From a candidate division WOR-3 bacterium (GTDB lineage: Bacteria; Hydrothermota; Hydrothermia; JBDRYB01): DNA of 64,000 nt. Shown in pieces: positions 6,294 through 59,319 of the stretch. The translations under genes and the position numbers were made by a program. Position 1 is the stretch's first letter; every line of letters begins with the position of its first letter. The stretch lies in the NCBI GenBank assembly GCA_039803205.1, contig JBDRYB010000001.1, forward strand, positions 203,413-267,412, in the 5' to 3' direction. Under the pieces are notes generated by a model. It was not told the origin of the DNA. It did not search any database and saw only the letters and a program-made list of their open reading frames with translations.

Positions 6294-7817
6294 CTACCTC
6301 ACCGCCAATTTCCCCTTTTGTATATTGGTCTCCCAGATGTAGACCCCTGGCTCAAGGGGGATCCGGTTCTCGCCCTCGTGCAATTCGCCGGAATAGACTA
6401 GCCTTCCGTCGGATTTGTATATCTTTATCCCAACATCATAAGGGGAAATGAAAAGCGCGCCTCCGGGGACCGGGGAGCAGGTTATTTTGGGCCTGTTATA
6501 AACATCCCTTTCTTCAACGGCTGGCGGACAAACATCGGTTATAGTCAGGCTCGGGGTAGTTATAGTGGGGCTTGGGGATGATGTCTGAGGGGAGCAAGTC
6601 GTCACGCTAACCGAGGGCGAGGATGTGATCAGCGAGGGCGTTCCAACGGTTGGGGAGCATTCCTGAACACAGCCGGGATAGTTCCCGTCAGAACCCAGCT
6701 TGAGGACGAGGAAATAAGAACCGCCGGTGCCGAAACTCCTTGTGTATCCAGCGACAGCGTAGCCTCCGTCAGAAGTTTGGATTATGGAGCGGGCATCGTC
6801 ATAATCCGTTCCACCAAATGTCCTTGCCCAAACGAGAGAACCGTTGGAGTTCAGCTTGAGAACGAGGAAATCACCATAGCCAGCGCCGAAGCTCTCTGTT
6901 GCTCCCGCAACAGCGTAGCCTCCATCCGAGGTTTGGGTTATGGAGTAGGCCCAGTCATCGCCTATCCCCCCAAAAGTCCTTGCCCAGGCGAGAGAACCGT
7001 TGGAGTTCAGCTTGAGGACGAGGAAATCTTGATTGCCGGCGCCAAAGCTCTTTGTCTCTCCCGCGACAGCGTAGCCTCCATCAGAGGTTTGGGTGATGGA
7101 GAGGGCCCAGTCATAATTTGTTCCCCCAAATGTCCTTGCCCAGGCGAGAGAACCATCCGGGTTCAGCTTGAGGACGAGGAAATCATAATCGCCAGCGCCG
7201 AAACTATGTGTGGCTCCCGCGACAGCATAGCCTCCATCAGAGGTCTGGGTTATGGACTCGGCCCAGTCATCGCCTATCCTCCCAAATGTCCTTGCCCAGG
7301 CGAGAGAGCCATCCGGGTTCAGCTTGAGGACGAGGAAATCTTGATTGCCGGCGCCAAAGCTCTTTGTCTCTCCCGCGACAGCGTAGCCTCCATCAGAGGT
7401 TTGGGTGATGGAGAGGGCCCAGTCATAATTTGTTCCCCCAAATGTCCCTGCCCAGGCGAGAGAACCGTTGGAGTTCAGCTTGAGGACGAAGAAATCGACA
7501 TACCCGGCGCCGAAACTCGGCGTGTATCCCGCGACAGCGTAGCCTCCGTCAGAGGTCTGGGTTATGGAGTGGGCATAGTCCCAGCCCGTTCCACCAAATG
7601 TCCTGGCCCAAGCAACTGAGCCATCCGGATTCAGCTTGAGGACGAGGAAATCACTATTGCCGGCGCCGAAACTATATGTCCATCCCGCGACAGCGTAGCC
7701 TCCGTCCGCAGTCTGGACTATGGAGCGGGCATCGTCCCAGTTCGTTCCGCCAAAGGCTTTGGCGAAGAGCCACTGAGCGACCAAGATGTTTGTTGTGATA
7801 AAAGCGTATATCATCAT
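6294..7817 (-). CDS. Secreted 7-bladed beta-propeller (paralog A) with Cys/Ser/Thr/Pro stalk and short T9SS-like CTD
   Basis: Seven 51-aa repeats WARTFGGTxxDxAxSIxQTSDGGYAVAGxTxSFGAGxxDFLVLKL; CTD IKIYKSDGRLVY...PGVYIW...GKLAVR; GGAGG upstream of ATG 7817/7814. Confidence 0.85.
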   Translation of the reverse strand: MMIYAFITTNILVAQWLFAKAFGGTNWDDARSIVQTADGGYAVAGWTYSFGAGNSDFLVLKLNPDGSVAWARTFGGTGWDYAHSITQTSDGGYAVAGYTPSFGAGYVDFFVLKLNSNGSLAWAGTFGGTNYDWALSITQTSDGGYAVAGETKSFGAGNQDFLVLKLNPDGSLAWARTFGRIGDDWAESITQTSDGGYAVAGATHSFGAGDYDFLVLKLNPDGSLAWARTFGGTNYDWALSITQTSDGGYAVAGETKSFGAGNQDFLVLKLNSNGSLAWARTFGGIGDDWAYSITQTSDGGYAVAGATESFGAGYGDFLVLKLNSNGSLVWARTFGGTDYDDARSIIQTSDGGYAVAGYTRSFGTGGSYFLVLKLGSDGNYPGCVQECSPTVGTPSLITSSPSVSVTTCSPQTSSPSPTITTPSLTITDVCPPAVEERDVYNRPKITCSPVPGGALFISPYDVGIKIYKSDGRLVYSGELHEGENRIPLEPGVYIWETNIQKGKLAVR

Positions 7818-7868: not shown

Positions 7869-7959
7869 CTACCGGATGGCCATCTTGCCGGATTGGTTGC
7901 GGGTTACGGGTTGCGGGTTGCGGGTTGTCCAGATGTAGACCCCTGGCTCAAGGCTCAGC
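7869..7959 (-). pseudogene. Orphan 3' tail of a propeller CTD gene, with GGGTTRC heptamers
   Basis: Encodes LSLEPGVYIWTTRNPQPVTRNQSGKMAIR*, nearly identical to the ends of paralogs B and C; no gene body upstream. Confidence 0.85.
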
Positions 7960-7989: not shown

Positions 7990-8763
7990 ATGCCAAGCTG
8001 CAAGAGGATGAGATTGCCGGAGGGCCTCGTGTCCGATATGGTTCGGAAGGGGCTTGGCCCGCAGGAGATAGGGGTCTATTTCGCCCTGATAGCTGACCCG
8101 CAAACCCATCCATCTGGGGTTGTCCTGAACCAGGAGATAACGAGAACGAGGCTCGGTTTGGCCAAGAAAACCTGGAACCGGGTCCTGAGGAGGCTGGAAA
8201 AGGCCGGTTTCGTGATCCCATCCAGGGAGGTAAAAGGGGTTTTGCTCGTCCCGGAGATGAGCTCCTACTGCCTCAGAACCCCCTCTCAGTTTCACAGGGC
8301 TTTACGAGAAATGGCTGGGGTTCCGGATGACATAGCGTCCCCGTGGAAGGAGAGATACAGGGAGGAACTTTCATCCGAAAGGAATAATAAAAGATCTTAT
8401 AATAAAAAACATGAGAAAAATAATACAAAAGATGTTCCTGAGGGATGCGCGAGGGCGAACGAGCTCGTTTCTGCCTTCGCGAGCGCGTGGAAAACCCAGA
8501 ACCCAGGGGTTCCTTTCTCAGGAGGAGGTGGGCTGGGAAGGTTCCTCAAATCAGCCCTGCGGGAACTCCAGCGAGATGGTTGCCCGGAACCGCAGGAGAC
8601 CATAAGAAAGACGATTGCCTATTGGTTCAATCCTCCCCCTGATCTGCACGGGTTCGCGAGCTCTGTCTCATACGGGTGGGAAGGGTTCATAAAGAAATAC
8701 CCGGAGCTCCTCAGGCGGGTTAGATACGACGAGAGGCCAACGCAAACGAGGAGGATCAATTGA
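7990..8763 (+). CDS. Phage/plasmid-type replication initiator-like protein (N-terminal winged HTH)
   Basis: wHTH-like TRTRLGLAKKTWNRVLRRLEKAGFV, Asn/Lys-rich linker, helical C-terminal domain; stop overlaps the start of a DnaC-like gene. Confidence 0.6.
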   Translation: MPSCKRMRLPEGLVSDMVRKGLGPQEIGVYFALIADPQTHPSGVVLNQEITRTRLGLAKKTWNRVLRRLEKAGFVIPSREVKGVLLVPEMSSYCLRTPSQFHRALREMAGVPDDIASPWKERYREELSSERNNKRSYNKKHEKNNTKDVPEGCARANELVSAFASAWKTQNPGVPFSGGGGLGRFLKSALRELQRDGCPEPQETIRKTIAYWFNPPPDLHGFASSVSYGWEGFIKKYPELLRRVRYDERPTQTRRIN

Positions 8764-9467
8764 TCATCGGTCCGGATTGCACATGCCTCGGCAGGGAGGA
8801 GAAGGCAGGGGATTGCTCGGCCCGAAAGGCCGACCTCTTGATACTCTCGGCATCGGGACCAGGAGAGATAGCCAGGTATTCGCCCTATTGCCGATACACC
8901 CAGGCCATCCTGGGCCCAAAGCGAGAGAGATACGCTGATATTGAAGCAACGAGGGTGATGATCTGGGGCGGATTCCCAAGGGAAATGGCGAAGGGAGCGA
9001 GGCTTTCGGATCTCCCCCCTGAGCTCCTTAAGTGGGATCACCCAAAGATCCTGTTTTTGACCGGAAGGCCAGGCGTCGGGAAGACCTGGGCCGCTGCCGC
9101 CCTCATCCGAAGGGAGCTTGGGGAGGCGATCCTGAAAGGCCCCCTTTGCTCCTATCCTACCGCCTTCGTCTATGCCCCCGATGTTCCGCCATTTTCCAGG
9201 GTCTACGACCTTCCGTGGATCGGCGCGGACCTCCTCCTCATAGATGACCTCCCATTATACGATGCCCATCGCGCCCCACTTTGGCAATCAATTTGCGATT
9301 TCAGATACAGGAACGGGCTGGGCATGCTCATAACAGCGAACACCGAGGCGATTGCCCTGAGCTCCATTGCCCCAAGCTGGAGGCCCGTGCTCTCAAGGCT
9401 ATTTGATGGGGAGCGCTCCTTGGCGATTGAGCTCTCAGGAGCAGACAGGAGGCTCAGAACCTCTTGA
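8760..9467 (+). CDS. DnaC/IstB-like AAA+ ATPase (helicase-loader-like)
   Basis: Walker A GRPGVGKT, Walker B LLLIDD, R....mlITaN, SRL, G.DRR; N-terminal Cys cluster. Confidence 0.8.
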   Translation: MIIGPDCTCLGREEKAGDCSARKADLLILSASGPGEIARYSPYCRYTQAILGPKRERYADIEATRVMIWGGFPREMAKGARLSDLPPELLKWDHPKILFLTGRPGVGKTWAAAALIRRELGEAILKGPLCSYPTAFVYAPDVPPFSRVYDLPWIGADLLLIDDLPLYDAHRAPLWQSICDFRYRNGLGMLITANTEAIALSSIAPSWRPVLSRLFDGERSLAIELSGADRRLRTS

Positions 9468-13655: not shown

Positions 13656-16340
13656 ATGCTTCTGGAAATACTCATAGCGAGCCAAACCCTCCCCGGCCTC
13701 TACTTTGAGAGCGGCACGGAGGGCACCTGGGCAAAGATATACACGGGAACAGAGTGGATAAACGAGAAACCCATGAGGAGCCAGCCCATCCCCCCGAAGG
13801 TAGCTGACACGGCCGTGCTCTGGGTTGACAGGAACCACGGAAACGCGGTGGCTGAGCATGTGGCAATAACAGGGGACGGGATGCACATCTTCGCTGGATG
13901 GTGGTTGAACAACAAGCGGGTTTCCGCATACAGGACCCTCGGGACGAATGTCCCCATATGGATGGACAGCCTTCCGGACGCTGAGTGGCAGATAAGGGTT
14001 GACGCATCAAGGGTTGACAAGTTCACATCCGCTGTCCCCGGCCACCCAACCATGGATTGCTACGATAAGGGCTCGGCCACGCCCCTCTGGGAGTTCCGCT
14101 ATCCACCGGGATTCCGGGCCGCGGGCTGGAAGACCTCGGCTGTCTCCTACGATGGCGCTGTTGCCGCATTCATAGGCTCAAACGGCGCTGTTGGCAAGGT
14201 ATGGGTCCTCTCCACAGCCACCGGCGAAACCCTGTGGACAAGGGAGTTCAGCTACGCGAGAGGACCATACGGAGTTGATCTCTCCTCAGATGGCTCGGTC
14301 TGCCTGGTCACATGCTACGACTCCTGCTTCGTCTACGAAAACGGCACCCTGAGGGGCAACTTCTACCACTACGGCCAGGTTCCCTCGGCCATATCTGGCG
14401 ATGGGTCCATAGTGGCGTCCGCCAACTACAACGCTACGGTTCAGGTATGGCAGTGGAACGGATCATCCTATGTTCTCCTTTGGCAGAACAGCGTGGGAAA
14501 CACCTGGGCCACATCTGTTGATGTCTCGCGAGATGGCTCAACCATAGCCTGCGGAACAGGATACAGCAACGGAACCCTGAGGGTATATGACATCTCCTCC
14601 TCTACCCCGCTCTGGACATACGCTGGATACGGCGGATACGGCTCAGGGGTCTGGGCCGTGGCCGTTTCCGGGGACGGAGGGCACATCATTGCCGCATCCT
14701 ACGGGGACACCCTTCCAAACGACACATTCAAGGTTTTAACCGTTCACGACAGGTCCTCATCTGTGCCCCTCCTGACCGTGAACGGCCAGCAGGAGCCCGG
14801 CTCATTGTTCTCGTGCGACATATCCGATGACGGGGTATACGCTACGGCCGGAGGAAAGGCTGTCCACGCATACACCCTTGGCAACGGCGGCGAGGTCTAC
14901 GCGATAATCATAGGGGCTTCGCCCTCGGCGAATGTGGGGACAGAGGCGATACTCTCGCCCCCCAAGTGGGTTCAGCTTTCGGGCAACTACCAGGTCCAAG
15001 CCAGGTTCAGGAACTACGGGGATTCCCCCGCGAGCTTCCCCGTTTATTTCAGGATAGACACGGCCGGCGGAACCGTCTACTCATCCTCCTCAAGCATAAC
15101 CAACCTCGGCCCAGGCTCTCCTCAGACCATAACATTCTCTCCGAACTGGACCCCCCCGAACTACAACCTCTACACAGCCTACGCCTGGACAGAGCTCAGT
15201 GGGGATGGCTACCACGGGGATGATACGGTTTCCCTGACAATAAAGTGCTTCCACGATGCTATGGCTGTTAGCATAGATCAGCCTTTTGACACCATAACCG
15301 TGAATCAGCCCTTTACCCCAGGGGTGACCGTCAAAAACAACGGTTCATACACGGAATCCTTCAGGGTGATCCTCAACATTTACGATTCCTATATGACGCT
15401 CATATACTCGGATACAGCGGTCTCATCCCCCATAGCGCCAGACGCGCAGACGAGGGTGACATTCTCCCCCCAGTGGGCGCCGCCAGCGATAGGATCATAT
15501 ACCGCGGAGGCGATAGCTGAGGTCACGGACAACTACTACACGGACAACGACACGGTGAGAAAGCCTTTTGAGGCTACCTACGAGATCATATACGACGATG
15601 GGGTTCCGGAGGCCTACTATGTGGTCAGCTTCTCGGACGACAACAACAAGTTCGCTGTCCGCTTCACACCGACCATAGACCCACCCCTTTACATAACCCA
15701 GGGCAGGATATATGTGAACCAGGCGGGAAAGCCCTTTGACTATGTGATACTCTGCCCTGATGCTGGAGGCCGCCCTGACACGGCCGCTCCCTATGATACG
15801 GTATACAATGTCTCGGCGCCCTCAGCCCCAGCCTGGGCCTTCTTTGATTTCAGCCCGGACATATATCTCACATCCGGGTCCGACATATGGCTCGTCATCC
15901 ACTGGCCCTCATCAAGCCCGGGCGCTCCAGGGGTCGGGGCTGACAACAACTGGTTCGTGGACACAAGGAGCTGGTGGTATAACAACTCATCGGGCTGGAA
16001 CAACTGGACATCCCACGACTGGATGATCAGGGTGACCCAGGACACGGCCCCATCAGATGTCGCTGAGCCCCCGGACAATCTGAGGTTCTGGGTTGGAATG
16101 CCTTCCCCAAATCCAGCGAGGGGCCAAGCCATCCTCTCATACAGCTTGCCGGACGAGACCGATGTTGAGGTAAAGCTATATACGGTTGACGGGAGGCTGG
16201 CGAAGGAGCTCTTCTCAGGGAGAGAGGGGCCCGGAGTCCACAACCTGAGCCTGGCTCTGGATGTGCCGAACGGGGTCTATTTCCTGAGGCTCAGAGCCGG
16301 GAACCAGAAAGCACTGAGGAAGCTGGCTATCCTGCGCTAG
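13656..16340 (+). CDS. Secreted WD40-like propeller + Ig/CARDB-like domains + full-length T9SS-type CTD
   Basis: S.DG repeats, V.N.G...F.V Ig-like units and C-terminal PNP...YSLP...LYTVDGRL...NGVYFLRL...KLAILR. Confidence 0.8.
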   Translation: MLLEILIASQTLPGLYFESGTEGTWAKIYTGTEWINEKPMRSQPIPPKVADTAVLWVDRNHGNAVAEHVAITGDGMHIFAGWWLNNKRVSAYRTLGTNVPIWMDSLPDAEWQIRVDASRVDKFTSAVPGHPTMDCYDKGSATPLWEFRYPPGFRAAGWKTSAVSYDGAVAAFIGSNGAVGKVWVLSTATGETLWTREFSYARGPYGVDLSSDGSVCLVTCYDSCFVYENGTLRGNFYHYGQVPSAISGDGSIVASANYNATVQVWQWNGSSYVLLWQNSVGNTWATSVDVSRDGSTIACGTGYSNGTLRVYDISSSTPLWTYAGYGGYGSGVWAVAVSGDGGHIIAASYGDTLPNDTFKVLTVHDRSSSVPLLTVNGQQEPGSLFSCDISDDGVYATAGGKAVHAYTLGNGGEVYAIIIGASPSANVGTEAILSPPKWVQLSGNYQVQARFRNYGDSPASFPVYFRIDTAGGTVYSSSSSITNLGPGSPQTITFSPNWTPPNYNLYTAYAWTELSGDGYHGDDTVSLTIKCFHDAMAVSIDQPFDTITVNQPFTPGVTVKNNGSYTESFRVILNIYDSYMTLIYSDTAVSSPIAPDAQTRVTFSPQWAPPAIGSYTAEAIAEVTDNYYTDNDTVRKPFEATYEIIYDDGVPEAYYVVSFSDDNNKFAVRFTPTIDPPLYITQGRIYVNQAGKPFDYVILCPDAGGRPDTAAPYDTVYNVSAPSAPAWAFFDFSPDIYLTSGSDIWLVIHWPSSSPGAPGVGADNNWFVDTRSWWYNNSSGWNNWTSHDWMIRVTQDTAPSDVAEPPDNLRFWVGMPSPNPARGQAILSYSLPDETDVEVKLYTVDGRLAKELFSGREGPGVHNLSLALDVPNGVYFLRLRAGNQKALRKLAILR

Positions 16341-16389
16341 ATCCTTCAAGGAGGCGCAGATATGCAACGAGGAGGATAACCGTTATCAG

Positions 16390-17445
16390 GTGAGCCAGAA
16401 CCAGGAGCGAGGCCTCTACATCCACATCCCTTTTTGCCAGAGCAGGTGCCCCTATTGCTCGTTCTACTCCGAAACGGGCCTTCACCTGAGCGATGATTTC
16501 CTGGAGGCCCTGGCTAATGAGGCTCAGGAATTCAAGGGTTATTGCTTCTCAACATGCTACATAGGCGGTGGGACCCCTTCAGTTCTGTCTCCGGATCAAA
16601 CAGAGAGGCTGTTCGGGATAATCCGAGAGAACTTTGAGCTGGACCGGGGCGCTGAGATAACGGTTGAGGTCAACCCGGAGTCCGCGACCGGGGATCTTCT
16701 CAGAACGCTAAAAGGCCTGGGTGCGAACAGGCTCTCTGTGGGCGCGCAGTCCACCTGGGACAGCGAGCTGGAGCGCCTCGGCAGAAGGCACAGGAACTCG
16801 GACACGATAAGGTGCGTGGAGAACGCCTTGGCCGTGGGCTTCTCAAACATAAACCTTGACCTCATCTTCGGGTTCATCGGCCAGACAGAGGAAAGCTGGA
16901 GAAAGAGCCTCGTGCGGGCCACAGAGCTCCCAATAACCCACATATCAACATACGCCCTGAGCCCACACGGAGGGGTTGAGGAGCTCTCCGAGGAAGAGAT
17001 CATCGTCATGTATGAGATTAGGGACGAGGTCTTGGGCGCTCGCGGCTTCCTGAGATACGAGATAAGCAACTACGCGAGGCCCGGCTACGAATCCGTGCAC
17101 AACCTTATATACTGGCGCCGCAAGGAATACCTGGGCCTCGGGCCCTCTGCCTCAAGCTTCATGGGAAACCGGAGGTGGAGGAACGAACCGGATCTTGAGC
17201 TTTACCTGAAGGCCCCTCCTTTCCAGAGAGAGGAAGAAACCCTCACGCCGGAGCAGGCCAGGCTTGAGGAGATATTCCTGGGGCTCAGGCTCTCTGATGG
17301 GATCGATCTTGGGATCTCGGAGCTCCCGGAGGAACTCGTGGGCCTCGTAGAAATAAAGAACCGCCGGGTCTCCTTGACCCCAAAAGGGGTTCTCGTCTCA
17401 GACCGGGTCGCGCTGGAGCTGTTTGAGGTGCTCGGAAACCAATGA
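16390..17445 (+). CDS. hemW: Radical SAM heme chaperone HemW (HemN-like)
   Basis: LYIHIPFCQSRCPYC, GGGTPS, YEISNYA and HNLIYW motifs. Confidence 0.9.
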   Translation: MSQNQERGLYIHIPFCQSRCPYCSFYSETGLHLSDDFLEALANEAQEFKGYCFSTCYIGGGTPSVLSPDQTERLFGIIRENFELDRGAEITVEVNPESATGDLLRTLKGLGANRLSVGAQSTWDSELERLGRRHRNSDTIRCVENALAVGFSNINLDLIFGFIGQTEESWRKSLVRATELPITHISTYALSPHGGVEELSEEEIIVMYEIRDEVLGARGFLRYEISNYARPGYESVHNLIYWRRKEYLGLGPSASSFMGNRRWRNEPDLELYLKAPPFQREEETLTPEQARLEEIFLGLRLSDGIDLGISELPEELVGLVEIKNRRVSLTPKGVLVSDRVALELFEVLGNQ

Positions 17446-17473: not shown

Positions 17474-19015
17474 CTATCTGATCGCCAGCTTGCCGGATTG
17501 GTTACGAGTTACGGGTTCCGGGTTACGGGTTGTCCAGATGTAGACCCCTGGCTCAAGGGGGAGCCGGTTCTCGCCCTCCTGCAATTCGCCGGAATAGACT
17601 AGCCTTCCGTCTGCCTTGTATATCTTTATCCCAATATCATAAGGGGAAATGAAGAGCGCGGCGCCCGGAACCGGGGAGCAGGTTATCCTGGAGCCCGGAA
17701 GGATGTCTCTCTCTCTGACATAAACCGTTGGGCAAACCTCGGTTATGGCCGGATCTGGGGTGGTTATAGTTGGGTCTGGGGATGATGTCTGAGGGGAGCA
17801 GTCCGCGCCAACTGAGGGTTCGGTTATGGTTGGCGAAACATCGTAGACGGTTGGGGAGCATTCCTGGACACAGCCGGGATAGTTCCCGTCAGAACCCAGC
17901 TTGAGGACGAGGAAATCATAATCGCCGGCGCCGAAACTCCTTGCCTTTCCCGCGACAGCGTAGCCTCCATCCGCGGTCTGAGCTATGGAGGAGGCCATGT
18001 CCCAGTCTGTTCCGCCAAATGTCCTCGCCCAGGCAAGTGAACCATCCGGGTTAAGCTTGAGGACTAGGAAATCACTATTGCCAGCGCCGAAACTCTGTGT
18101 GTATCCCGCGACAGCGTAGCCTCCATCAGAGGTCTGGTTTATGGAGGAGGCTATGTCCCCGTTTGTTCCGCCAAATGTCCTCGCCCAGGCAAGTGAACCA
18201 TCCGGGTTCAGCTTGAGAACGAAGCAATCAAAATAGCCAGCGCCGAAACTCTGTGTGTATCCCGCGACAGCGTAGCCTCCATCAAAGGTTTGGGTTATGG
18301 AGGAGGCATCATCCGTGCTTGTTCCCCCAAATGTCCTTGCCCAGGCAAGAGAGCCGTCGGAGTTCAGCTTGAGGACGAGGAGATCCCGATCGCCAGCACC
18401 GAAACTATATGTGTGTCCCGCGACAGCGTACCCTCCATCAGAGGTCTGGGTTATGGAATAGGCCCTATCCCAGCTGGTTCCGCCAAATGTCCTTGCCCAG
18501 GCGAGAGAGCCATCCGGGTTCAGCTTGAGGACAAGGAAATCAGCATTGCCAGCGCCGAAACTATATGTGATTCCCGCGACAGCGTAGCCTCCATCCGCGG
18601 TCTGAGCTATGGAGGAGGCTATGTCGTAGTCTGTTCCCCCAAATGTCCTTGCCCAAGCGAGAGAGCCGTTGGAGTTCAGCTTGAGGACGAGGAGATCCCG
18701 ATCGCCAGCGCCGAAACTATATGTGTGTCCCGCGACAGCGTAGCCCCCATCAGAGGTCTGGGTCATGGAGTAGGCCGTGTCCCAGTCTGTTCCGCCAAAT
18801 GTCCTTGCCCAGACAGGTGAGCCATCCGGGTCCAGCTTGAGAACGAGGAAATCATAACCGCCAGCGCCGAAACTCTGTGTGCGTCCCGCGACAGCGTAGC
18901 CCCCATCCGCGGTCTGGACTATGGAGCGGGCCTCGTCCCAGTTCGTTCCGCCAAAGGCTTTGGCGAAGAGCCACTGACCAACCAAGATGTTTGTGGTTAT
19001 TATAGCGTATATCAT
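17474..19015 (-). CDS. Secreted 7-bladed beta-propeller (paralog B) with T9SS-like CTD
   Basis: Seven 51-aa blades; same architecture as paralog A; 513 aa. Confidence 0.85.
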   Translation of the reverse strand: MIYAIITTNILVGQWLFAKAFGGTNWDEARSIVQTADGGYAVAGRTQSFGAGGYDFLVLKLDPDGSPVWARTFGGTDWDTAYSMTQTSDGGYAVAGHTYSFGAGDRDLLVLKLNSNGSLAWARTFGGTDYDIASSIAQTADGGYAVAGITYSFGAGNADFLVLKLNPDGSLAWARTFGGTSWDRAYSITQTSDGGYAVAGHTYSFGAGDRDLLVLKLNSDGSLAWARTFGGTSTDDASSITQTFDGGYAVAGYTQSFGAGYFDCFVLKLNPDGSLAWARTFGGTNGDIASSINQTSDGGYAVAGYTQSFGAGNSDFLVLKLNPDGSLAWARTFGGTDWDMASSIAQTADGGYAVAGKARSFGAGDYDFLVLKLGSDGNYPGCVQECSPTVYDVSPTITEPSVGADCSPQTSSPDPTITTPDPAITEVCPTVYVRERDILPGSRITCSPVPGAALFISPYDIGIKIYKADGRLVYSGELQEGENRLPLEPGVYIWTTRNPEPVTRNQSGKLAIR

Positions 19016-19066
19016 AAATAAACCTCTGTTAGGCTCAAATTATAAACCTTTGTCAAGGGGCAAAAC

Positions 19067-20608
19067 CTACCGGATCGCCAGCTTGCCGGATTGGTTGCGG
19101 GTTACGGGTTGCGGGTTACGGGTTGTCCAGATGTAGACCCCTGGCTCAAGGGGGAGCCGGTTCTCGCCCTCGTGCAATTCGCCGGAATAAGCTAGCCTTC
19201 CATCGGCCTTGTATATCTTTATCCCAATCTCATAAGGGGAGATGAAGAGCGCGGCGCCCGGAACCGGGGAGCAGGTTATCCTGGAGCCCGGAAGGATGTC
19301 TCTCTCTCTGACATAAACCGTTGGGCAAACCTCGGTTATGGCCGGATCTGGGGTGGTTATAGTTGGGTCTGGGGATGATGTCTGAGGGGAGCAGTCCGCG
19401 CCAACTGAGGGTTCGGTTATGGTTGGCGAAACATCGTAGACGGTTGGGGAGCATTCCTGGACACAGCCGGGATAGTTCCCGTCAGAACCCAGCTTGAGGA
19501 CGAGGAAATCATAATCGCCGGCGCCGAAACTCCTTGCCTTTCCCGCGACAGCGTAGCCCCCATCCGCGGTCTGAGCTATGGAGGAGGCCATGTCCCAGTC
19601 TGTTCCGCCAAATGTCCTCGCCCAGGCAAGTGAACCATCCGGGTTCAGCTTGAGGACTAGGAAATCACCATTGCCAGCGCCGAAACTCTCTGTGTATCCC
19701 GCGACAGCGTAGCCCCCATCAGAGGTCTGGGTTATGGAGGAGGCATGGTCCCAGCTCGTTCCCCCAAATGTCCTTGCCCAGGCAAGAGAGCCATCCGGGT
19801 TAAGCTTGAGAACGAGGAAATCATAACCGCCAGTGCCGAAACTCTGTGTGTATCCCGCGACAGCGTAGCCCCCATCAGAGGTCTGAGCTATGGAGGAGGC
19901 TATGTCGTAGTCTGTTCCCCCAAATGTCCTTGCCCAGGCGAGAGAGCCATCCGGGTTAAGCTTGAGAACGAGGAGATCATAACCGCCAGCGCCGAAACTA
20001 TATGTGTATCCCGCGACAGCGTAGCCTCCATCAGAGGTCTGGGTTATGGAATAGGCCCTATCCCAGCTGGTTCCGCCAAATGTCCTTGCCCAGTGGATAG
20101 AGCCATCCGGGTTCAGCTTGAGGACGAGGAAATCATCATCGCCAGCGCCGAAACTATATGTGTGTCCCGCGACAGCGTACCCTCCATCAGAGGTCTGGGT
20201 TATGGAATAGGCCCTATCCCAGCTGGTTCCGCCAAATGTCCTTGCCCAGTGGATAGAGCCATCCGGGTTCAGCTTGAGGACGAGGAGATCAGCATTGCCA
20301 GCGCCGAAACTATATGTGTATCCCGCGACAGCGTAGCCTCCATCAGAGGTCTGGGTCATGGAGTAGGCTCCGTCCTCGCTTGTTCCGCCAAATGTCCTTG
20401 CCCAGACAGGTGAGCCATCCGGGTTCAGCTTGAGAACGAGGAAATCATAATCGCCAGCGCCGAAACTATATGTGTATCCCGCGACAGCGTAGCCTCCATC
20501 AGAGGTCTGGATTATGGAGCGGGCCTCGTCCCAGTTCGTTCCGCCAAAGGCTTTGGCGAAGAGCCACTGACCAACCAAGATGTTTGTGGTTATGAAAGCA
20601 TATATCAT
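19067..20608 (-). CDS. Secreted 7-bladed beta-propeller (paralog C), tandem duplicate of B
   Basis: Same length as B (1542 nt, offset 1593 nt); blade 7 and stalk identical to B at protein level; GGAGG upstream of ATG 20608. Confidence 0.85.
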   Translation of the reverse strand: MIYAFITTNILVGQWLFAKAFGGTNWDEARSIIQTSDGGYAVAGYTYSFGAGDYDFLVLKLNPDGSPVWARTFGGTSEDGAYSMTQTSDGGYAVAGYTYSFGAGNADLLVLKLNPDGSIHWARTFGGTSWDRAYSITQTSDGGYAVAGHTYSFGAGDDDFLVLKLNPDGSIHWARTFGGTSWDRAYSITQTSDGGYAVAGYTYSFGAGGYDLLVLKLNPDGSLAWARTFGGTDYDIASSIAQTSDGGYAVAGYTQSFGTGGYDFLVLKLNPDGSLAWARTFGGTSWDHASSITQTSDGGYAVAGYTESFGAGNGDFLVLKLNPDGSLAWARTFGGTDWDMASSIAQTADGGYAVAGKARSFGAGDYDFLVLKLGSDGNYPGCVQECSPTVYDVSPTITEPSVGADCSPQTSSPDPTITTPDPAITEVCPTVYVRERDILPGSRITCSPVPGAALFISPYEIGIKIYKADGRLAYSGELHEGENRLPLEPGVYIWTTRNPQPVTRNQSGKLAIR

Positions 20609-20668: not shown

Positions 20669-20771
20669 CTACCGGATGGCCAGCTTGCCGGATTGGTTGC
20701 GGGTTACGGGTTGCGGGTTACGGGTTGTCCAGATGTAGACCCCTGGGTCAAGGGGGAAATGAAAAAAGCGC
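20669..20771 (-). pseudogene. Orphan, internally deleted CTD tail with GGGTTRC heptamers
   Basis: LDPGVYIWTTRNPQPVTRNQSGKLAIR* is joined directly to ALFISP-like sequence at an AAGGGG microhomology. Confidence 0.8.
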
Positions 20772-20953
20772 AGTGTTTCAAAATTCCGGATCACCGGACA
20801 AAGGGATTGTCTGAGTGCCAAGAGCCCCTGAGATGTCTCATCGGTGGGATATAGCAAAAGCCTCTTCGAGGCTGAAGGGCTCAGCCTTGTCCGTTCATAA
20901 TCTCTTCCCTTATCCCGTAAGGGCAAAATCTTAGTGGCCTCGCCGGAGGCACA

Positions 20954-21400
20954 TCAAGGCCCCCCAGCCCTGGTTTTCAAAGGCTTAGGGCCATAAGGGG
21001 TCGGCTTTGGCTCATCCGCCCAGGTTCCCGAACGGTTATGAACCTCAAATATACCCTTGCCCACCATCTGAGCTTTGCCCTTGCCCGTCGCGTCAATCAC
21101 CAGGTCCTTGCCGAGGGCCATAACTATGAAGTCCGAGCCGGAAATGCTGAAAGTGCCTATTCCAGGAACGAATTTCCAGGCTTCATCTCCGTCAGCCACC
21201 TTCTCAGGGACCTGCGCGTCCCCGGCCAGGTCCTTATACCACAGCGAACCCTCGCCGGTTATGGTAAGGGAACCATGACCTCTTATATAGACCAGGCCGT
21301 TGCCCTCCGCGTGAAGGGTTTTCTCGGTCTCGCTCTTTCCTTTTTCGTGTCCTTGGCCGCCGGTCCCAGCAAACAAAAGGCCCGCGATCACTAATTTCAC
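20954..21400 (-). CDS. Hypothetical secreted beta-rich protein
   Basis: GTG start with GGAGGTG RBS, short signal-like N-terminus, Gly-rich beta strands. Confidence 0.65.
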   Translation of the reverse strand: MKLVIAGLLFAGTGGQGHEKGKSETEKTLHAEGNGLVYIRGHGSLTITGEGSLWYKDLAGDAQVPEKVADGDEAWKFVPGIGTFSISGSDFIVMALGKDLVIDATGKGKAQMVGKGIFEVHNRSGTWADEPKPTPYGPKPLKTRAGGP

Positions 21401-30186: not shown

Positions 30187-30603
30187 CTATTGAAAGCTCA
30201 GCACCCTCAGGAGCCAGAGAGCGGCAACGGCCCTTTTCTCAAAGACGCCAACTGGGCCATCCAGATGGCCTATTGTCCTGTATGAAGCGTCGGTTATGTC
30301 CCCGTCGTCCTCTATGTGAAGGATAGTTCTGTAGCTCTCATCCGTGACATCCCCATCTTCCTCAACATGGCCTATTGTCCTGTATGAATCGTCGGTTATG
30401 TCCCCGTCGTCCTCAATGTGGCCTATTGTCCTGTATGAATCGTCGGTTATGTCCCCGTCTTCTTCAATATGCGCTATTGTCCTGTAGCTTTCGTCAGTTA
30501 TGCGTCCATCGGCCTCCAAGTGGGCTATCGTCCTGTAGCTGTCATCGCGGACGGTTATATCCCCTGAGAAAACCATCGCGCTCAACAGAAAAATCTCTAT
30601 CAT
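30187..30603 (-). CDS. Beta-flower-like 17-aa repeat protein
   Basis: Six D(D/E/A)SYRTIxHxExDGxIT repeats (51 bp each) plus a hydrophobic C-terminal helix. Confidence 0.65.
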   Translation of the reverse strand: MIEIFLLSAMVFSGDITVRDDSYRTIAHLEADGRITDESYRTIAHIEEDGDITDDSYRTIGHIEDDGDITDDSYRTIGHVEEDGDVTDESYRTILHIEDDGDITDASYRTIGHLDGPVGVFEKRAVAALWLLRVLSFQ

Positions 30604-36045: not shown

Positions 36046-36189
36046 TAAACCTCCGTTTTGGTTTCTCAAAAATAAAAACGCGCCGGCCCCAGCAAATTCC
36101 GGGAGGTGCTGAGTGCCGGGGCCGGCCCTGGGTTTTCATCTCACAACCGCCTTTCCTTTGAATTGGCCAGCCTGCCAGAAGTAGACCCC
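36046..36189 (-). repeat. CTD-end + hairpin + RBS repeat, copy 1
   Basis: Near-identical to 43834-43986 and 37685-37800; GC hairpin 36082-36126 followed by a T-rich tract on the sense strand. Confidence 0.9.
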
Positions 36190-37644
36190 GGCGTCAAGGT
36201 TTATCAGGTTTCTGCCCTTCCTAAGCTCTCCCGAATAGACGAGCTTGCCGTCGGCCTTGTATATCCTCACGAGCATTTCCTCCGGAGAAATGAAGAGCGC
36301 GCCGGCGGGGAGGGGGGAGCAGGTTATGCCGGATTCACTGTATAAACTACTTTCTTCAACAAAGAGAGGCACGCAGGCATCCGTTATGGTCAGGTTCGGA
36401 TTTGTTATCGTTAGGCTTGGAGAAGATAATATGGGAGAGCAAGGAACGCCAACAGAGGGAGATGATGTGGCGGGATAGATATTCATCACGGTCGGAGAAC
36501 AGCTCTGAACACAATCGGTATAATTCCCTTCCGAATCTAGCTTGATAACGAAAAGGTCGTTACCACCAGCACCAAACTTCGCTGTAGTTGCGGCAACAAC
36601 ATATCCTCCTTCAGGGGACTGGATCAGCGAGTAGCCACCATCAGGTGCCATAGACCCATCAAATGTCCTGGCCCAATCCAGAGAGCCGTCCGAGGCGAGC
36701 TTGAGAATGAAGAGATGGTTGCCAATGCCAAAGCTATATGTAAATCCGGCAACTGCGTAACCTCCATCCACGGTCTGGATTATAGAGTATCCCCTATCAG
36801 TGGTGGTTCCGCCATATGTCCTGGCCCAATCCAGAGAACCGTCCGAGGCGAGCTTGAGAATGAAGAGGTCGTTACCACCAGCACCGAAGCTGCTCGTGTA
36901 TCCTGTAATCGCATATCCTCCATCCGTAGTCTGGATTATGGAGTAGGCATTATCATAGTCTGTCCCCCCGTATGTCCTGGCCCAATCCAGAGAACCGTCC
37001 GAGGCGAGCTTGAGAATAAAGATGTCATACGAACCGGCACCGAATACATTTGTCCATCCCACAACAGCATATCCTCCATCATCAGTTTGGATCACCGAGT
37101 TGGCACCGTTATTGGCTGTCCCTCCAAATGTCCTGGCCCAATCAACGGAGCCATCAGAAGCGAGTTTGATAACTAACATGCCGGCAGGGAAAAGACTTCC
37201 TTCTCCCGCGAGCACATATCCTCCATCAGTGGTCTGAATCACTGAATAAACCTGATCATAGCCAGTTCCACCGTATGTTCTTGCCCATTCAAGGGAACCA
37301 TCAGAAGCAAGCTTAAGGACAAGAAAGTCTCTGAGGCCAGCACCGAAGCTTTCTGTCCACCCAGCTACTACATATCCTCCGTCAGTTGTATGGATCACTG
37401 AATATCCCCCCCAATCATAGTTCACCCCTCCGAATGTCTTGGCCCAACTCACAGAACCATCAGGGGCCAGCTTGAGAACAAGGAAGTCATACAGGCCAGC
37501 GCCAAAGCTCTCCGTACGCCCAGCGACCACATATCCTCCATCAGTGCTAGGGGTTATGGAAAATGCCCAATCCAAGCTTGGACCGCCGTATGTCTTGGCC
37601 CACAGGTTCTGCCCCAAAAGAACGGCTATAAAAAGGCTTGTCAT
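36136..37644 (-). CDS. Secreted 7-blade propeller with T9SS-like CTD
   Basis: WARTYGGT...QTTDGGY...ILKLASDGSLD repeats; ends GVYFWQAGQFKGKAVVR. Confidence 0.85.
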   Translation of the reverse strand: MTSLFIAVLLGQNLWAKTYGGPSLDWAFSITPSTDGGYVVAGRTESFGAGLYDFLVLKLAPDGSVSWAKTFGGVNYDWGGYSVIHTTDGGYVVAGWTESFGAGLRDFLVLKLASDGSLEWARTYGGTGYDQVYSVIQTTDGGYVLAGEGSLFPAGMLVIKLASDGSVDWARTFGGTANNGANSVIQTDDGGYAVVGWTNVFGAGSYDIFILKLASDGSLDWARTYGGTDYDNAYSIIQTTDGGYAITGYTSSFGAGGNDLFILKLASDGSLDWARTYGGTTTDRGYSIIQTVDGGYAVAGFTYSFGIGNHLFILKLASDGSLDWARTFDGSMAPDGGYSLIQSPEGGYVVAATTAKFGAGGNDLFVIKLDSEGNYTDCVQSCSPTVMNIYPATSSPSVGVPCSPILSSPSLTITNPNLTITDACVPLFVEESSLYSESGITCSPLPAGALFISPEEMLVRIYKADGKLVYSGELRKGRNLINLDAGVYFWQAGQFKGKAVVR

Positions 37645-37684
37645 GATAAAGACTCCTTTTGTTTCTTTTTTAAGAGAGATATAG

Positions 37685-37800
37685 GCCGGCCCCAGCGAAT
37701 TCCGGGAGGTGCTGAGTGCCGGGGCCGGCCCTGGGTTTTCATCTTACAACAGCCTTTCCTTTGAATTGGCCTGCTTGCCAGAAGTAGACCCCTGGCTCAA
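37685..37800 (-). repeat. CTD-end + hairpin repeat, copy 2
   Basis: GCCGGCCCCAGCGAATTCCGGGAGGTGCTGAGTGCCGGGGCCGGC plus the shared gene end. Confidence 0.9.
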
Positions 37801-39229
37801 GGGAGATCCTGGTCTGGCCGGGGTGGAGTTCTTGGGATAGGAATAGGCGGCCATCGGGAGAATATATCTCAACTCTGGAATCCACAGCTGACAGAAACAC
37901 AACAGCACCATCAGTAAGTATAGCTCTAATCCACGGGCTTGCTTCCCGCTCTTCCAAAGAGATGCTCGCGCACGGATCGCTAAAATTGGGCACCGGCTCA
38001 GACTGGTTAAGAGTTTGGTCAACAACCGTTGGGACAAAACCTACGCCCGTTGTCTGATCTATCACTGTTGGGTTGACAAGTGAGGTAGAGAACACCATAT
38101 TCCTCAAGCAACCCTGATATGTTCCGTCCGGGTTGAGGCTTAGCGCGAAGGCATCGGTTCCGGTGCCCCAGCTGGTTGTGTAGCCAGTGCAGATCGGATT
38201 CCCAGACGCAGAAACCCTTATTGACCAAGCCTCTTCGTTTCCGACTCCGCCAAAAAGCGATGCCCAAATCAGGTTTCCTGATGGGTCTATCTTCATTATC
38301 AGGGCATCCTTCCCCAAAGCACCAGTGCTGGTAGTATATCCGGCCATGATCACGCCATCACCGGTTCTGTCAGCAGAGTAAATATACTCATATCCGTTTT
38401 CGCCGTATATCCTCGACCATAGAGGAAAGCCATCTGTGCCTAAGCGCATGACGAATATGTCCGTCCCCGAGGCACCGAAATTTGAGGTTTGGCCAGCTAC
38501 AATAAAGGTTCCGTCTTCCATCTCAAGGATCGCGTAAGCAGAATCACCCAAAGGTCCTCCGTATGTCTTAGCCCACTGGGTATTCCCCGAAGGATCCGTT
38601 TTAACGAGAAAGATGTCTCGCCCCCCGGCGCCAAAGCTTTGCGTCCAACCACCTACCAAAAATCCCCCGTCTCTGGTTTGGATCACTGGATAGGCATCCT
38701 CCTCAGCGGATATCGGTCCTCCATAAACCTTTGCCCAAACCAGGTTTCCATTGGGATCTATCTTGATCAGGTAAAAGTCGTCCTCGCGGGAAGATGACTC
38801 TGTCCACCCAGCCACGATGAAACCATCGGAAACAGTTTTAAGCGATCTAGGGCCATCCCAGTCTTCTCCTATGTATTTCTTTGCCCAGATTACGGAGCCG
38901 TCAGCAAGGGAAACCTTCATCACTATAACATCCGCGTTGCCAGAGGGGCCAGACTCTGATGCAAGCACGATGTTATTATCCGGAGTTATGTCTAAGCCCA
39001 ATCCCCAGTCGTTATACGGCGTGGAATAAACCTTGGTCCAGAGGGGACTGCCATCCGGAGCCATCTTGATCAATAGAAGATCTGCTCCAGCTCCCCAGCT
39101 TGTTGTGTGGCCCAGAAGCAGAACGCTTCCATCTGGCGCCTCCGTGATATACTGGCCCATCTCAAAGTTGTCCCATCCATAAGTTCTGGCGAAGCCCGCC
39201 AGAAGAACAACGCAAGCTAAGTGCATCAT
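37739..39229 (-). CDS. Secreted propeller (divergent) with T9SS-like CTD
   Basis: W.K.YGG / D..l.K.D..G repeats; ends EPGVYFWQAGQFKGKAVVR; AAGGAG RBS upstream of ATG 39229. Confidence 0.85.
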   Translation of the reverse strand: MMHLACVVLLAGFARTYGWDNFEMGQYITEAPDGSVLLLGHTTSWGAGADLLLIKMAPDGSPLWTKVYSTPYNDWGLGLDITPDNNIVLASESGPSGNADVIVMKVSLADGSVIWAKKYIGEDWDGPRSLKTVSDGFIVAGWTESSSREDDFYLIKIDPNGNLVWAKVYGGPISAEEDAYPVIQTRDGGFLVGGWTQSFGAGGRDIFLVKTDPSGNTQWAKTYGGPLGDSAYAILEMEDGTFIVAGQTSNFGASGTDIFVMRLGTDGFPLWSRIYGENGYEYIYSADRTGDGVIMAGYTTSTGALGKDALIMKIDPSGNLIWASLFGGVGNEEAWSIRVSASGNPICTGYTTSWGTGTDAFALSLNPDGTYQGCLRNMVFSTSLVNPTVIDQTTGVGFVPTVVDQTLNQSEPVPNFSDPCASISLEEREASPWIRAILTDGAVVFLSAVDSRVEIYSPDGRLFLSQELHPGQTRISLEPGVYFWQAGQFKGKAVVR

Positions 39230-39246
39230 GTCTCTTAACTCCTTCT

Positions 39247-40803
39247 TTATCTCATGAACATTGCCTTGCCTTTTTGCGCTTGGGTTATCCAAAAGTAGAC
39301 CCCTCGGTCAAGGTCTATTCTGTTTTCCCCCTCTCTAAGAACCCCGTAGTGCACCAGACGACCATCCGAAGCATAGATGGATATGGGAGTTTCATAGGTG
39401 CTGAAGAAAGAAATACCCCCTCGGAGGGTTCTAACAATCACGAGCTTCTCCTGGTTCTCTTGGTTCTGCTCCCCGATCTCCTCGTATAGGGGATCACATA
39501 TCTGTTCCGTAGTAAGATCGAGGGTTCCGTAGCCGAAATTTAGGGAGGCGGGAGGAGGATAAGAATTTGGAGTTAATGATATAAAGTAGCTTGTGTCCTG
39601 ATGCTCCAGGGGAGGATACCCCTTAGGGCCGACGCAACCCGGGTAGAACCCCTTCCTTGAGACCTTGAGGACGATGCCATCGTTAGCACCTATGACTGAA
39701 GAGGGGTTAGAGTATCCCACAACGCTTATAGAACCGTCAGGCATCTCTATCAAATCAGTAGCCGATTCCATGTGTGCCGGGAGCGATACAGCGAAGTTTA
39801 CCCCGAACAAAGAGTCTAGACCTAAGAGCCCGTTGCCGGTTGTTAGACAGAAGTCTCCGTTATCTGTTTGGATGATCTCGTAGACTTCATAGGTGCTACC
39901 GCCTCCAAATCTTTGGATCCTTGGGTTTCGGAGCTCAGAATCTACCTCCATCACGAAGAAGCCATCGGTTCTAGATGTTCCGGTTAGAACAAAGCCGCGC
40001 CCTGTTTGCGCTATTGAATGAGGCACATCCATAAAAGAGGTTGGGTAAAGACCGTTGATGGTATCAAGATCATAAACATAAACGGGCCCGGCTGGGTCGC
40101 CATCTTGGGTCACCTCAAACAGAAGAATCGCCTCATCGGTTATGTTGTCTGAATAGGTGCCCGCTATAACGAAGCTTTCTTGAGGCTCTTTTCTGGTCTG
40201 CGCTATACCGAAAGGCACCTCATGATAGTAAGGTTTTTGGAGCCACCTAGCAGACGAACTCTCTATTTGTCCACCCGGCGTCAACTGAACAAACAGAAGC
40301 ACGATATCCGCGTATCCATCTGGATCCCTAATAGAGGTAACCACGACTATGCGGCCAGCACGGGAAAGTATCATTTTTGGCCGCGGACAAGTTCCACTCG
40401 TTGGGCTCCAACCCATAGTCCAAAGAATATCCCCGTTTACATTCACGGCCATGAGAATAATCCTCGTGCCATCGTATCCGCAAACTATGTAGATATTTTT
40501 TCCATCGGGAAGCGTGAACGGGGCTAAGGATAGACCCTCCTCATTATTTGGATCTGAGCCTATAACATGGTAGTTTTTGAACCACTGATATTCCCCGCTG
40601 TGGCCAAGCTTGAGCAGGAAGATATCCCATGTGTATGAAGGGTTTGTAGGATCGAGGTTGAAATCCCCCGTTATCAGATAACCCTGTTCATCGTAGACAA
40701 TATCGTAGGGTTTTATGGAAGCCCTCTGTCCTGAAACAGATCCATACCCATAAGCTTTGGCCCAGAGATCCACGCCCATAAGAAATGCAAGGAGCTGATA
40801 CAT
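39247..40803 (-). CDS. Secreted highly divergent propeller with T9SS-like CTD
   Basis: LWAKAYG N-terminus, YPGC stalk, IYASDGRLV...GVYFW tail. Confidence 0.75.
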   Translation of the reverse strand: MYQLLAFLMGVDLWAKAYGYGSVSGQRASIKPYDIVYDEQGYLITGDFNLDPTNPSYTWDIFLLKLGHSGEYQWFKNYHVIGSDPNNEEGLSLAPFTLPDGKNIYIVCGYDGTRIILMAVNVNGDILWTMGWSPTSGTCPRPKMILSRAGRIVVVTSIRDPDGYADIVLLFVQLTPGGQIESSSARWLQKPYYHEVPFGIAQTRKEPQESFVIAGTYSDNITDEAILLFEVTQDGDPAGPVYVYDLDTINGLYPTSFMDVPHSIAQTGRGFVLTGTSRTDGFFVMEVDSELRNPRIQRFGGGSTYEVYEIIQTDNGDFCLTTGNGLLGLDSLFGVNFAVSLPAHMESATDLIEMPDGSISVVGYSNPSSVIGANDGIVLKVSRKGFYPGCVGPKGYPPLEHQDTSYFISLTPNSYPPPASLNFGYGTLDLTTEQICDPLYEEIGEQNQENQEKLVIVRTLRGGISFFSTYETPISIYASDGRLVHYGVLREGENRIDLDRGVYFWITQAQKGKAMFMR

Positions 40804-40822
40804 GCTTAAACTCCCTTAGTTT

Positions 40823-42340: not shown

Positions 42341-42362
42341 GCCTAAACCTCCGTCTTTACTT

Positions 42363-43829: not shown

Positions 43830-43833
43830 GGTT

Positions 43834-59026: not shown

Positions 59027-59319
59027 CTACCGGATCACCACCTTGCCGGATTGGTTACGGGTTACGGGTTGCGGGTTGCGGGTTGTCCAGATGTAGACAC
59101 CTGGCTCAAGGCTCAGCCGGTTCTCGCCCTCGTGCAATTCACCGGAATAAGCTAGCCTTCCGTCGGACTTGTATATTTTTATCCCAATATCATAGGGGGA
59201 GATGAAGAGCGCGCCCCCGGAACCGGGGAGCAGGCATAGTCATGGCCCGTTCCGTCAAATGTCTCGGCAAAGATGAACTGACCCATCAGCATGCTTATTG
59301 TTATGAAAAGATACATCAT
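59027..59319 (-). pseudogene. Internally deleted, frameshifted propeller-family gene (signal peptide fused to CTD)
   Basis: MMYLFITISMLMGQFIFAETFDGTGHDYA is fused to CSPVPG; a 1-nt loss in the C5 run at 59214-59218 precedes ALFISPYDIGIKIYKSDGRLAYSGELHEGENRLSLEPGVYIWTTRNPQPVTRNQSGKVVIR*. Confidence 0.85.

Follow-up and report, generated by a model that had tools for sequence, protein, structure and literature searches.

Recombining, predicted exported propeller genes of a candidate division WOR-3 bacterium, variable at eight codons per blade and divergent between near-identical strains

Variable patches set in a conserved framework are familiar from Neisseria pilE/pilS, Borrelia vlsE, the lamprey VLR genes and diversity-generating retroelements (DGRs), which work by RecA-type or template-directed copying. 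A closer parallel is found in the WD40 repeats of the HNWD/NWD NOD-like receptors (NLRs) of Podospora anserina (PMC4986451; bioRxiv 10.1101/2025.01.13.632504): the blades are 80–100% alike, evolve in concert within and between paralogs, shuffle, change in number, carry diversifying selection at a few codons on the interaction face and are difficult to assemble from short reads. Here, we describe two tandem propeller genes, B and C, and their close paralogs A and D, from a candidate division WOR-3 bacterium; A, B and C lie in the stretch of 64 000 nucleotides that was analysed (the window). The preliminary description of this DNA had proposed an antibody-like diversification system in which a constant framework carries shuffled hypervariable loops. 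Its observation is real and partly confirmed as described, being stronger between strains and weaker as a 'system', and its interpretation is partly supported. Of the three outcomes that it named as refuting (misassembled mosaics, scattered variable sites with dN/dS below 1, and a blade phylogeny that follows position), none has appeared as far as the tests reach. The reading that we favour, and hold to be probable, is that these genes encode binding heads which are exported and carried on a stalk, and whose diversity comes from RecA-type conversion and replacement, with selection for residues of the top face.

The window corresponds to positions 203413-267412 of contig C1 in the source assembly (G000; 2.32 Mb in 50 contigs, 95.9% complete) and contains no N. 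Four sequencing runs from one study (X1–X4), labelled hot springs metagenome, each contain at least half of the words of the stretch; an RNA run (X5) contains 0.06 of them. Homologs carry the source names 'candidate division WOR-3' and 'delta-60 repeat protein'. The principal features, of which several refer to the type IX secretion system (T9SS), are as follows.

17474..19015, minus strand: gene B, 513 residues, with a leader, seven 52-residue delta-60/DUF5122 units, a Ser/Thr/Pro/Cys stalk and a T9SS-like C-terminal domain
17864..18955, minus strand: the seven 156-bp units of B
17684-17863, minus strand: stalk of B
17474-17683, minus strand: C-terminal domain of B
19067..20608, minus strand: gene C, 513 residues counted from its ATG, anatomy as in B, units at 19457-20548
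19016..19066, minus strand: C–B spacer, whose sequence shows a TATAAT box and a ribosome-binding site rich in purines
6294..7817, minus strand: gene A, 507 residues, close paralog of B and C
36136..37644, minus strand: gene E, older paralog, first of a six-gene array
16390..17445, plus strand: hemW (radical SAM), the marker that defines the B slot, outside the system

B and C are members of a fast-evolving subfamily that also comprises A and D (C1:95410-96951, 81% DNA identity), within a set of about 46 full-length propeller genes; this count refers to full-length reading frames detected by a tail profile (E of 1e-20 or better) among 96 matching segments, together with nine short or broken ones. 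As had been noted, B and C are tandem genes of equal length (both 513 residues, minus strand). They differ at 120 of 1542 nucleotides in total, with three differences in the leader, 10, 21, 24, 13, 24, 12 and 1 in units 1–7, none in the stalk and 12 in the tail; units 1–6 each carry 4–11 amino-acid differences. Their ends are near-identical, with 1 of 20 residues differing at the N-terminus and 4 of 70 in the C-terminal domain, while unit 7 is identical in protein (one silent base in 156) and the stalk is identical in DNA (0 of 180 nucleotides). The unit length is 156 bp (52 residues) and not the 153 bp given earlier, and the proposed constancy of seven blades is true of A–D and fails for the family, in which genes of one, three and six units exist.

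Profile searches place the genes well within the delta-60 family: TIGR02608 gives 142.5 bits for B (in seven stretches), 168.3 for C, 147.6 for A and 138.4 for D against a curated cut-off of 76.5, and PF17164 (DUF5122) gives 103–117 bits for A–C against a cut-off of 27. An AlphaFold2 model (49-sequence alignment, pLDDT 91.8) is a closed seven-bladed propeller of 28 strands with 1+3 closure. The nearest solved fold is the propeller of CylK (PDB codes 7fh6 and 7ron; E of 1e-20, root-mean-square deviation 2.5, 25% identity); CylK is an enzyme that has an additional domain at its N-terminus, and it offers no functional lead. A lectin function was also considered and is not counted as evidence, the NCBIfam BP39L match being far under its cut-off and the PLL/PHL fold matches lower-ranked.

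The leader consists of about 13 hydrophobic residues followed by a conserved Gln, a residue that often follows the cleavage site in Bacteroidota, and the C-terminal tail of A–D is a β-rich stretch of 70 residues. The tails of A–D give no match to PF18962 or TIGR04183, and that of paralog E falls under the cut-off (E of 0.0074); PF18962 is present in 90–91% of the members of the nearest Atlas clusters. The genome has T9SS genes, a search aimed at these returning SprA_N, PorV and five Peptidase_C25 matches over cut-off. We infer from these features that the proteins most likely leave the cell by the T9SS and act as binding heads on a stalk (adhesins or capture proteins), each of which would bind through the top face of its propeller.

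Variation within the units is strongly concentrated. When pairwise amino-acid differences were counted over codons 1–41 of the 21 units of A, B and C, the eight codons 5, 6, 8, 10, 25, 27, 33 and 34 held 1346 of 1891 (71%), in agreement with the loop-concentrated variation proposed earlier. The reported richness in Y, W, D, S, R and H is also borne out (109 of 168 residues), with Y, D and W together supplying 74 of the 168. In a set of 378 blades from 108 other proteins, from which ten G000-type records were excluded and which includes a few sister alleles of older paralogs, the same eight columns have the highest entropy. Because this independent ranking agrees, the eight-site set is not post hoc, and since the variable columns are shared family-wide the pattern belongs to the family and not to the B/C locus alone.

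In the strand order of the model, the variable sites of all seven units occupy the d–a and b–c loops, together with the first half of strand a and the end of strand b. The conserved turns QTSDGG and NPDG belong to the a–b and c–d loops on the opposite face. The d–a and b–c loops make up the top face of a propeller. The variable sites would thus lie on one face, as the strand order of the model indicates and as the preliminary description had suggested might be found.

In the 21 units, nonsynonymous and synonymous differences per site (pN and pS) are 0.039 and 0.244 for the framework and 0.545 and 0.353 for the variable codons, so that the framework described as almost invariant is so in protein and not at silent sites. 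Over the 28 units of A–D, pN at the variable codons is 0.565 against a framework pS of 0.245, a raw ratio of 2.3 (codon bootstrap 1.7–3.2), and each of the eight codons individually shows a pN of 0.38–0.71 against that same pS. The corrected ratio is 3.3, or 2.0 when silent change in the same codons is used, and the framework dN/dS is 0.14 (21 units). This amino-acid excess is a strong hint of diversifying selection at the eight codons, a counting ratio being a hint and not a formal codon-model test. The 28 units contain 23 loop-1 and 25 loop-2 variants.

The units are mosaics. Half-blade variants recur as had been reported: TDYDIASSIAQT is present in B3 and C5, TSWDRAYSITQT in B4, C3 and C4 (no differences over the first 48 nucleotides), and GHTYSFGAGDRD in B2 and B4. 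The two halves of a unit can have different nearest partners, those of B3 being C5 for codons 1–16 and C2 for codons 25–41, and those of B4 being C3/C4 for the first half and B2 for the second. Within a single gene, units 3 and 5 of A have an exact tract of 131 bp in common.

A Sawyer-type fragment test on units 1–6 (1000 permutations) finds significant tracts, bearing out the proposed conversion within and between genes. For A/B/C, p is 0.002 with all polymorphic codons and 0.011 with silent ones only; the corresponding values are 0.002 and 0.082 for B/C and 0.062 and 0.003 for A–D. Pairs of units 1–6 differ at 6–38 of 156 nucleotides, most being 13–22% apart. Nor do the blades follow their position: for units 2–6, differences per 123 nucleotides at the same versus different positions are 24.6/24.4 for A–B, 23.0/23.4 for A–C and 24.0/24.3 for C–D, the largest gap among the ten gene pairs being that of B–C (15.2/17.4), and position is followed by the ends only. 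Framework distances group by genome, the units of A–D lying 7–11 of 99 nucleotides apart and 14–17 from those of a congener gene (gene X), within which the distance between units is 10.9. A FastTree phylogeny of 43 units has low support and serves for qualitative use only (congener unit X7 was missed by the pattern).

Exchange has also left its mark on whole genes; the features concerned, with two repeats that lie beside or inside them, are as follows.

19242..19558, minus strand: 317-bp tract of C identical to B (end of unit 7, stalk, start of C-terminal domain; B copy at about 17649-17965)
20669..20757, minus strand: orphan 3' tail of a lost third array gene, directly upstream of the spacer of C
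20757..20960, minus strand: dispersed repeat of about 200 bp adjoining this orphan tail
7869..7959, minus strand: orphan B/C-type 3' tail upstream of A
59027..59319, minus strand: relic of the subfamily that has lost its blades and stalk, so that the leader and start of unit 1 run into the C-terminal domain in a different frame
17500-17531, 19093-19125, 20695-20727, 7895-7927 and 59053-59085: 7-bp tandem repeat in the tails

Tails and spacers are homogenized among array neighbours despite divergent propellers, and near copies of the C–B spacer sit upstream of A and of C. Elsewhere in the genome, a one-unit gene (G000:C1:116876-117505) retains an intact leader, stalk and tail. Taken together, the orphan tails, the relic, the one-unit gene and the mosaics imply that exchange acts both on half-blades and on whole genes. 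As an observation in its own right, the one-unit gene might oligomerize into a propeller. The 7-bp repeat in the B/C-type tail has added seven residues in frame, and slippage there would shift the frame of the export signal. A canonical −35/−10 promoter in the spacer was considered and dropped, TTGACA lying only 5–11 nucleotides from TATAAT. The last 30 bases of the dispersed repeat recur at more than 12 places in the genome, some with longer common flanks, and the repeat is possibly a degenerate mobile-element remnant.

Comparison with a sister strain, represented by runs X3 and X4 and by several WOR-3 assemblies, shows that whole propellers differ between near-identical strains. The flanks are nearly the same (about 1.3% of bases differ in X3 flank contigs, 39 of 2472 and 30 of 2833; flank proteins are 98.6–100% identical in eight comparisons), and six older paralogs are 96.5–100% identical between the strains; the identity of the one-unit gene is 96.5–97.5%. 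The sequence clusters of A, B/C, D and E contain the source-strain type only. At the B slot this near-identical strain has a different propeller: the accession of the sister protein P0022 follows that of sister hemW, its last residues equal the downstream flank of B in another reading frame, and an X4 contig joining 17477 to 7885 encodes the same end. With B, P0022 shares 236 of 321 residues in the propeller and 64 of 70 in the tail; its stalk agrees with that of A at 64 of 65. Gene ends, contig sizes and accession order indicate that P0025 is probably the sister allele at the D slot (identical to D at 63 of 70 residues of the tail and 218 of 346 of the propeller; 21 accessions from the one-unit gene, with 20 gene steps in G000) and that P0160/P0156 probably occupy the E slot (18–21 of 22 and 63–66 of 70 residues at the ends, propellers 62–66% identical), so that the position of gene E is probably another replaceable slot.

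Of the variable 4-mers recovered from ten sister proteins, none equals one of A–D (loop-1 0 of 36, loop-2 0 of 34; the pattern missed some units), and the sister genes show half-blade sharing of their own (P0305 and P0306 unit 5). Unit number also differs, P0152 having three units and P0305 six, so that genes of one, three, six and seven units occur across paralogs and sister strains, a variety not seen at one slot. No confident slot placement was obtained for P0152, P0306, P0239, P0305/P0163, P0012 or P0067, and a metagenome scan with P0022 returned 23 distant loci (30–53% identity), none of them of the sister strain.

The two congener genomes (G001 and G002) show no B/C-type gene beside hemW or pfkA, the G001 hemW contig being uninformative as it ends 170 bp past the gene; their closest propeller genes lie in other contexts. 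PF17164 matches number 50, 24 and 5 in the three genus genomes and 0–3 in 38 other genomes of the class, rough figures from a short, weak model, and a tblastn search with P0022 yields 43 matches in one congener and 52 in the other. As a separate observation, the closest congener propeller genes (L002, L003, L008, L009, L012 and L014) adjoin DNA whose counterparts in G000 are scattered over many contigs, and the surroundings of hemW and pfkA are non-syntenic; the genus looks heavily rearranged, perhaps at propeller genes. Also in the congeners (L021 and L022), an extra 390-residue gene with a T9SS-like tail lies between an 894-residue gene and hemW, and X3 and X4 contigs break at 16331-16360 (window 16340-16390), which suggests an insertion polymorphism.

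A mechanism for the favoured reading, that of exported binding heads diversified by conversion, replacement and selection, can be outlined as follows. Short conversion tracts, starting and ending in the near-identical framework, would move half-blades and homogenize the scaffold, and unequal exchange would gain or lose units. Leader, spacer and C-terminal tail may serve as recombination arms through which whole propeller cassettes would be replaced, duplicated or lost at fixed slots, the orphan tails then being leftovers of cassette exchange. New loop residues would arise by point mutation and be retained by diversifying, probably frequency-dependent, selection. The dependence on RecA, the role of mismatch repair and the selective agent are, like export and binding, inferred steps of this scheme. 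For the agent, we lean towards changing substrate or partner surfaces; phage evasion or a decoy function is a less likely candidate, and kin recognition an improbable one.

A RecA gene is present in G000. MutS1 was found in none of the three genus genomes (G000, G001 and G002, which are 96, 86 and 98% complete) and in all 38 other genomes of the class, the single MutS_V match in each genus genome being MutS2-like. Neither the ATPase-side domain of MutL (PF01119) nor NucS was detected in any of these three. A MutL C-terminal remnant of 221 codons (G000:C5:75132-75797, L058; MutL_C E of 0.0004, under cut-off) is found before miaA; since it lies in the usual place within a 114-kb contig, decay is indicated rather than an assembly gap. 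Loss of MutS1/MutL may ease exchange between blades that are 13–22% apart. In Bacillus subtilis, losing MutSL is reported to change little as long as divergence stays within 15%, and to have an effect of about 100-fold beyond it (PMC6382021).

Several points weigh against the favoured reading. The eight columns vary throughout the family, so that part of the variation is structural tolerance, and their assignment to one face rests on strand order in a model, not on coordinates. The units recombine and the pairs entering the ratio are not independent; its value could also be inflated by old loop islands spared by conversion, silent change at the variable codons being higher too (0.35 versus 0.24). 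The D and E slot assignments rest on gene ends, contig sizes and accession order; the six conserved paralogs were picked for multi-member clusters and give no proportion; and the D-slot allele is stable in four sister records (501–504 of 505 residues), so replacement is slow. The tail of B itself matches neither PF18962 nor TIGR04183, and its leader has just about 13 residues. Finally, the loss of mismatch repair is one event in one genus and hence a correlation, PF01119 was also missed in 6 of the 38 other class genomes, and in Bacillus subtilis the loss is reported to matter little below 15% divergence (PMC6382021).

The best-surviving alternative is neutral: conversion following recent amplification from single blades, with loops that tolerate change and strain differences that reflect birth-and-death turnover. 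We consider it improbable, if the strongest of the rivals. Highly repetitive, short-lived propellers are common according to the main text of an earlier survey (PMC9218822), the eight columns vary in the 378 homologous blades as well, relics and genes of one and three units exist, and mismatch-repair loss would raise neutral exchange. Neutrality nevertheless predicts a variable-codon pN near the framework pS, whereas the ratio found is 2.3 (1.7–3.2) with every codon at 0.38–0.71 against 0.245; the framework, moreover, is under strong purifying selection (0.14), and the variable sites are enriched in Y, D and W (74 of 168). A bolder proposal, which we regard as doubtful, is that a free-living genus deficient in mismatch repair uses its propellers as an enzyme-free standing combinatorial surface library that is renewed within the population. 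Loops would be converted into a framework common to the blades, gene ends would be recombination arms of general use, and every lineage would show a set of binding heads of its own, turning over quickly enough for sets to differ inside a single population. If true, this would be an antibody-like surface repertoire without a dedicated enzyme and a natural library of a binding scaffold from a thermostable habitat.

A dedicated, programmed diversifier of the antibody, VLR, pilin or DGR kind, reshuffling half-blades into expressed slots within a clone, fares worse and is quite unlikely. In its favour, the framework is constant, each blade has two variable loops (23 loop-1 and 25 loop-2 variants among the 28 units) and the loop sets differ wholly between 99% identical strains. 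Contigs over the repeats are also more numerous and more varied in X3/X4 (436 and 251) than in X1/X2 (143 and 129), the summed depth over repeats likewise being greater in X3/X4, which is not a copy number, and the breaks of two orphan tails coincide to within a few bases. Yet the machinery searched for was not found. G000 contains no match to the reverse-transcriptase family RVT_1 (PF00078), a control being positive in 3 of 14, and 73 of the 224 variable codons have A or G as their third base, an outcome beyond the reach of adenine mutagenesis of AAY templates; a DGR was rejected on these grounds. Of seven tyrosine-recombinase matches (PF00589; serine recombinases were not searched for), none lies within 200 kb of the locus, the only match on C1 being at 431.6 kb and B/C at 221–224 kb, and no long inverted repeats were found at B/C. 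A site-specific cassette system at the orphan tails is not supported either: other tails break elsewhere, no tyrosine recombinase is near and the orphan tail beside C adjoins the dispersed repeat. As to a silent donor archive, 0 of 22 loop-1 and 0 of 23 loop-2b DNA variants recur outside A–D exactly or with one mismatch, unassembled repeats being possible, while 4 of 19 of the 15-nucleotide loop-2a variants do so exactly; import of loops from older paralogs was discarded because no matching loop DNA lies outside A–D. Blade number varies, and a second assembly of the same strain type matches at 828 of 829 compared residues. The pattern looks like an arms race run by ordinary recombination and not like a dedicated antibody-like machine.

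That second assembly contains the last 306 residues of B, beginning at the end of unit 4, and A in two overlapping pieces without a difference; the sole discrepancy, at B position 314, carries the residue of C6 and is either a conversion polymorphism or a chimera. Exact repeats of at least 40 bp among A–D number 31, of which nine reach 60 bp, four 100 bp and one 150 bp, and both loops of any unit lie within 90 nucleotides. In X1 the depth at the shared stalk is 75.4 against 37–39 in the flanks, and this doubling indicates two real copies. That the mosaics are a short-read misassembly of a simpler array is therefore very improbable, for although the run contigs break within the repeats of all three genes (leaving blade order without independent confirmation), the 317-bp tract could swap the ends of B and C and the residue at B 314 is that of C6, the scarcity of long repeats, the confirmation of A and of B from the end of unit 4 onwards, the doubled stalk depth and the recurrence of half-blade sharing with other loops in sister-strain genes (P0305 and P0306 unit 5) all speak against it.

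Other observations concern the remainder of the window and genome. A GC-rich hairpin follows many paralog stop codons, with a loop of CACCTCC (anti-Shine–Dalgarno) succeeded by a T run and then by the GGAGG of the next gene; no Rfam family matched in the window at gathering score.

Window 36136-45444, and in G000 C3:58-68 kb, C5:42-50 kb, C1:182-189 kb and C16: hairpin-bearing spacers, without an Rfam match in the window
7990-9467: helix–turn–helix protein and DnaC/IstB-like ATPase, similar to the replication module of a phage or plasmid, immediately upstream of the orphan tail of A and kept in the sister strain
45488-47062: tetratricopeptide-repeat protein and DNA-binding regulator upstream of the six-gene array, A, B and C having no such neighbour
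40823-42340: FG-GAP/PQQ-type propeller in the array, with 138-bp internal repeats about 80% alike, a second homogenized-looking propeller family
30187-30603: small protein with five to six tandem repeats of 17 residues

The literature on this family is sparse. In the literature searched, DUF5122 appears only in a modelling table (PMC8078820); searches from which subscription journals were mostly absent, supplements being unread, found nothing that joins WOR-3 with T9SS, nothing on 'delta-60 repeat' and nothing on type IX secretion together with a propeller and gene conversion. The main text of the survey of recently amplified propellers (PMC9218822) does not use 'gene conversion', 'hypervariable' or 'DUF5122', although its sequence tables could include relatives. 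Its propellers resemble those described here in having blades more than 60% identical, lineage-specific framework signatures and frequent decayed copies; as far as that text goes, they are explained by amplification from one blade, whereas here half-blade exchange and strain replacement are seen.

Replacement flexible genomic islands of aquatic prokaryotes (PMC4033161) have different content at the same place, encode exposed structures, exchange by homologous recombination and are proposed to be under phage pressure. Their defining feature, that closely related strains differ in what they carry at one site, is seen at the B slot and, on weaker evidence, at the D and E slots; here, in distinction to what is described for the islands, the unit is one gene, the arms are its own leader and tail, and the genes recombine internally as well. 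From the pilE/pilS, vlsE, VLR and DGR systems, A–D are set apart by having no silent donor archive, single expression site or reverse transcriptase.

It is the HNWD repeats that offer the closest comparison, and A–D appear to work like them in their mode of evolution without being an NLR. Profile searches of A–D give only DUF5122/delta-60 over cut-off, and no NACHT, NB-ARC, WD40 or effector domain. The differences are that the propeller here is bacterial and, as predicted, exported, with a stalk and T9SS-like tail in place of NACHT/STAND or effector domains; that its blades are of the delta-60/DUF5122 and not the WD40 type; that eight sites vary instead of four; that whole cassettes are replaced at slots; and that no mutator akin to repeat-induced point mutation is known. 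What is new is the replacement of single genes at a slot between strains about 99% identical and the genus-wide lack of MutS1, not a demonstrated new machine. Concerted evolution with diversifying selection on one face, established in intracellular fungal immune receptors, appears here in predicted exported proteins of an uncultured free-living bacterium. This provides a concrete and testable case of bacterial surface renewal and an initial pointer to what the undescribed delta-60/DUF5122 family may do, as well as a natural scaffold in which each blade has eight positions that could be tuned.

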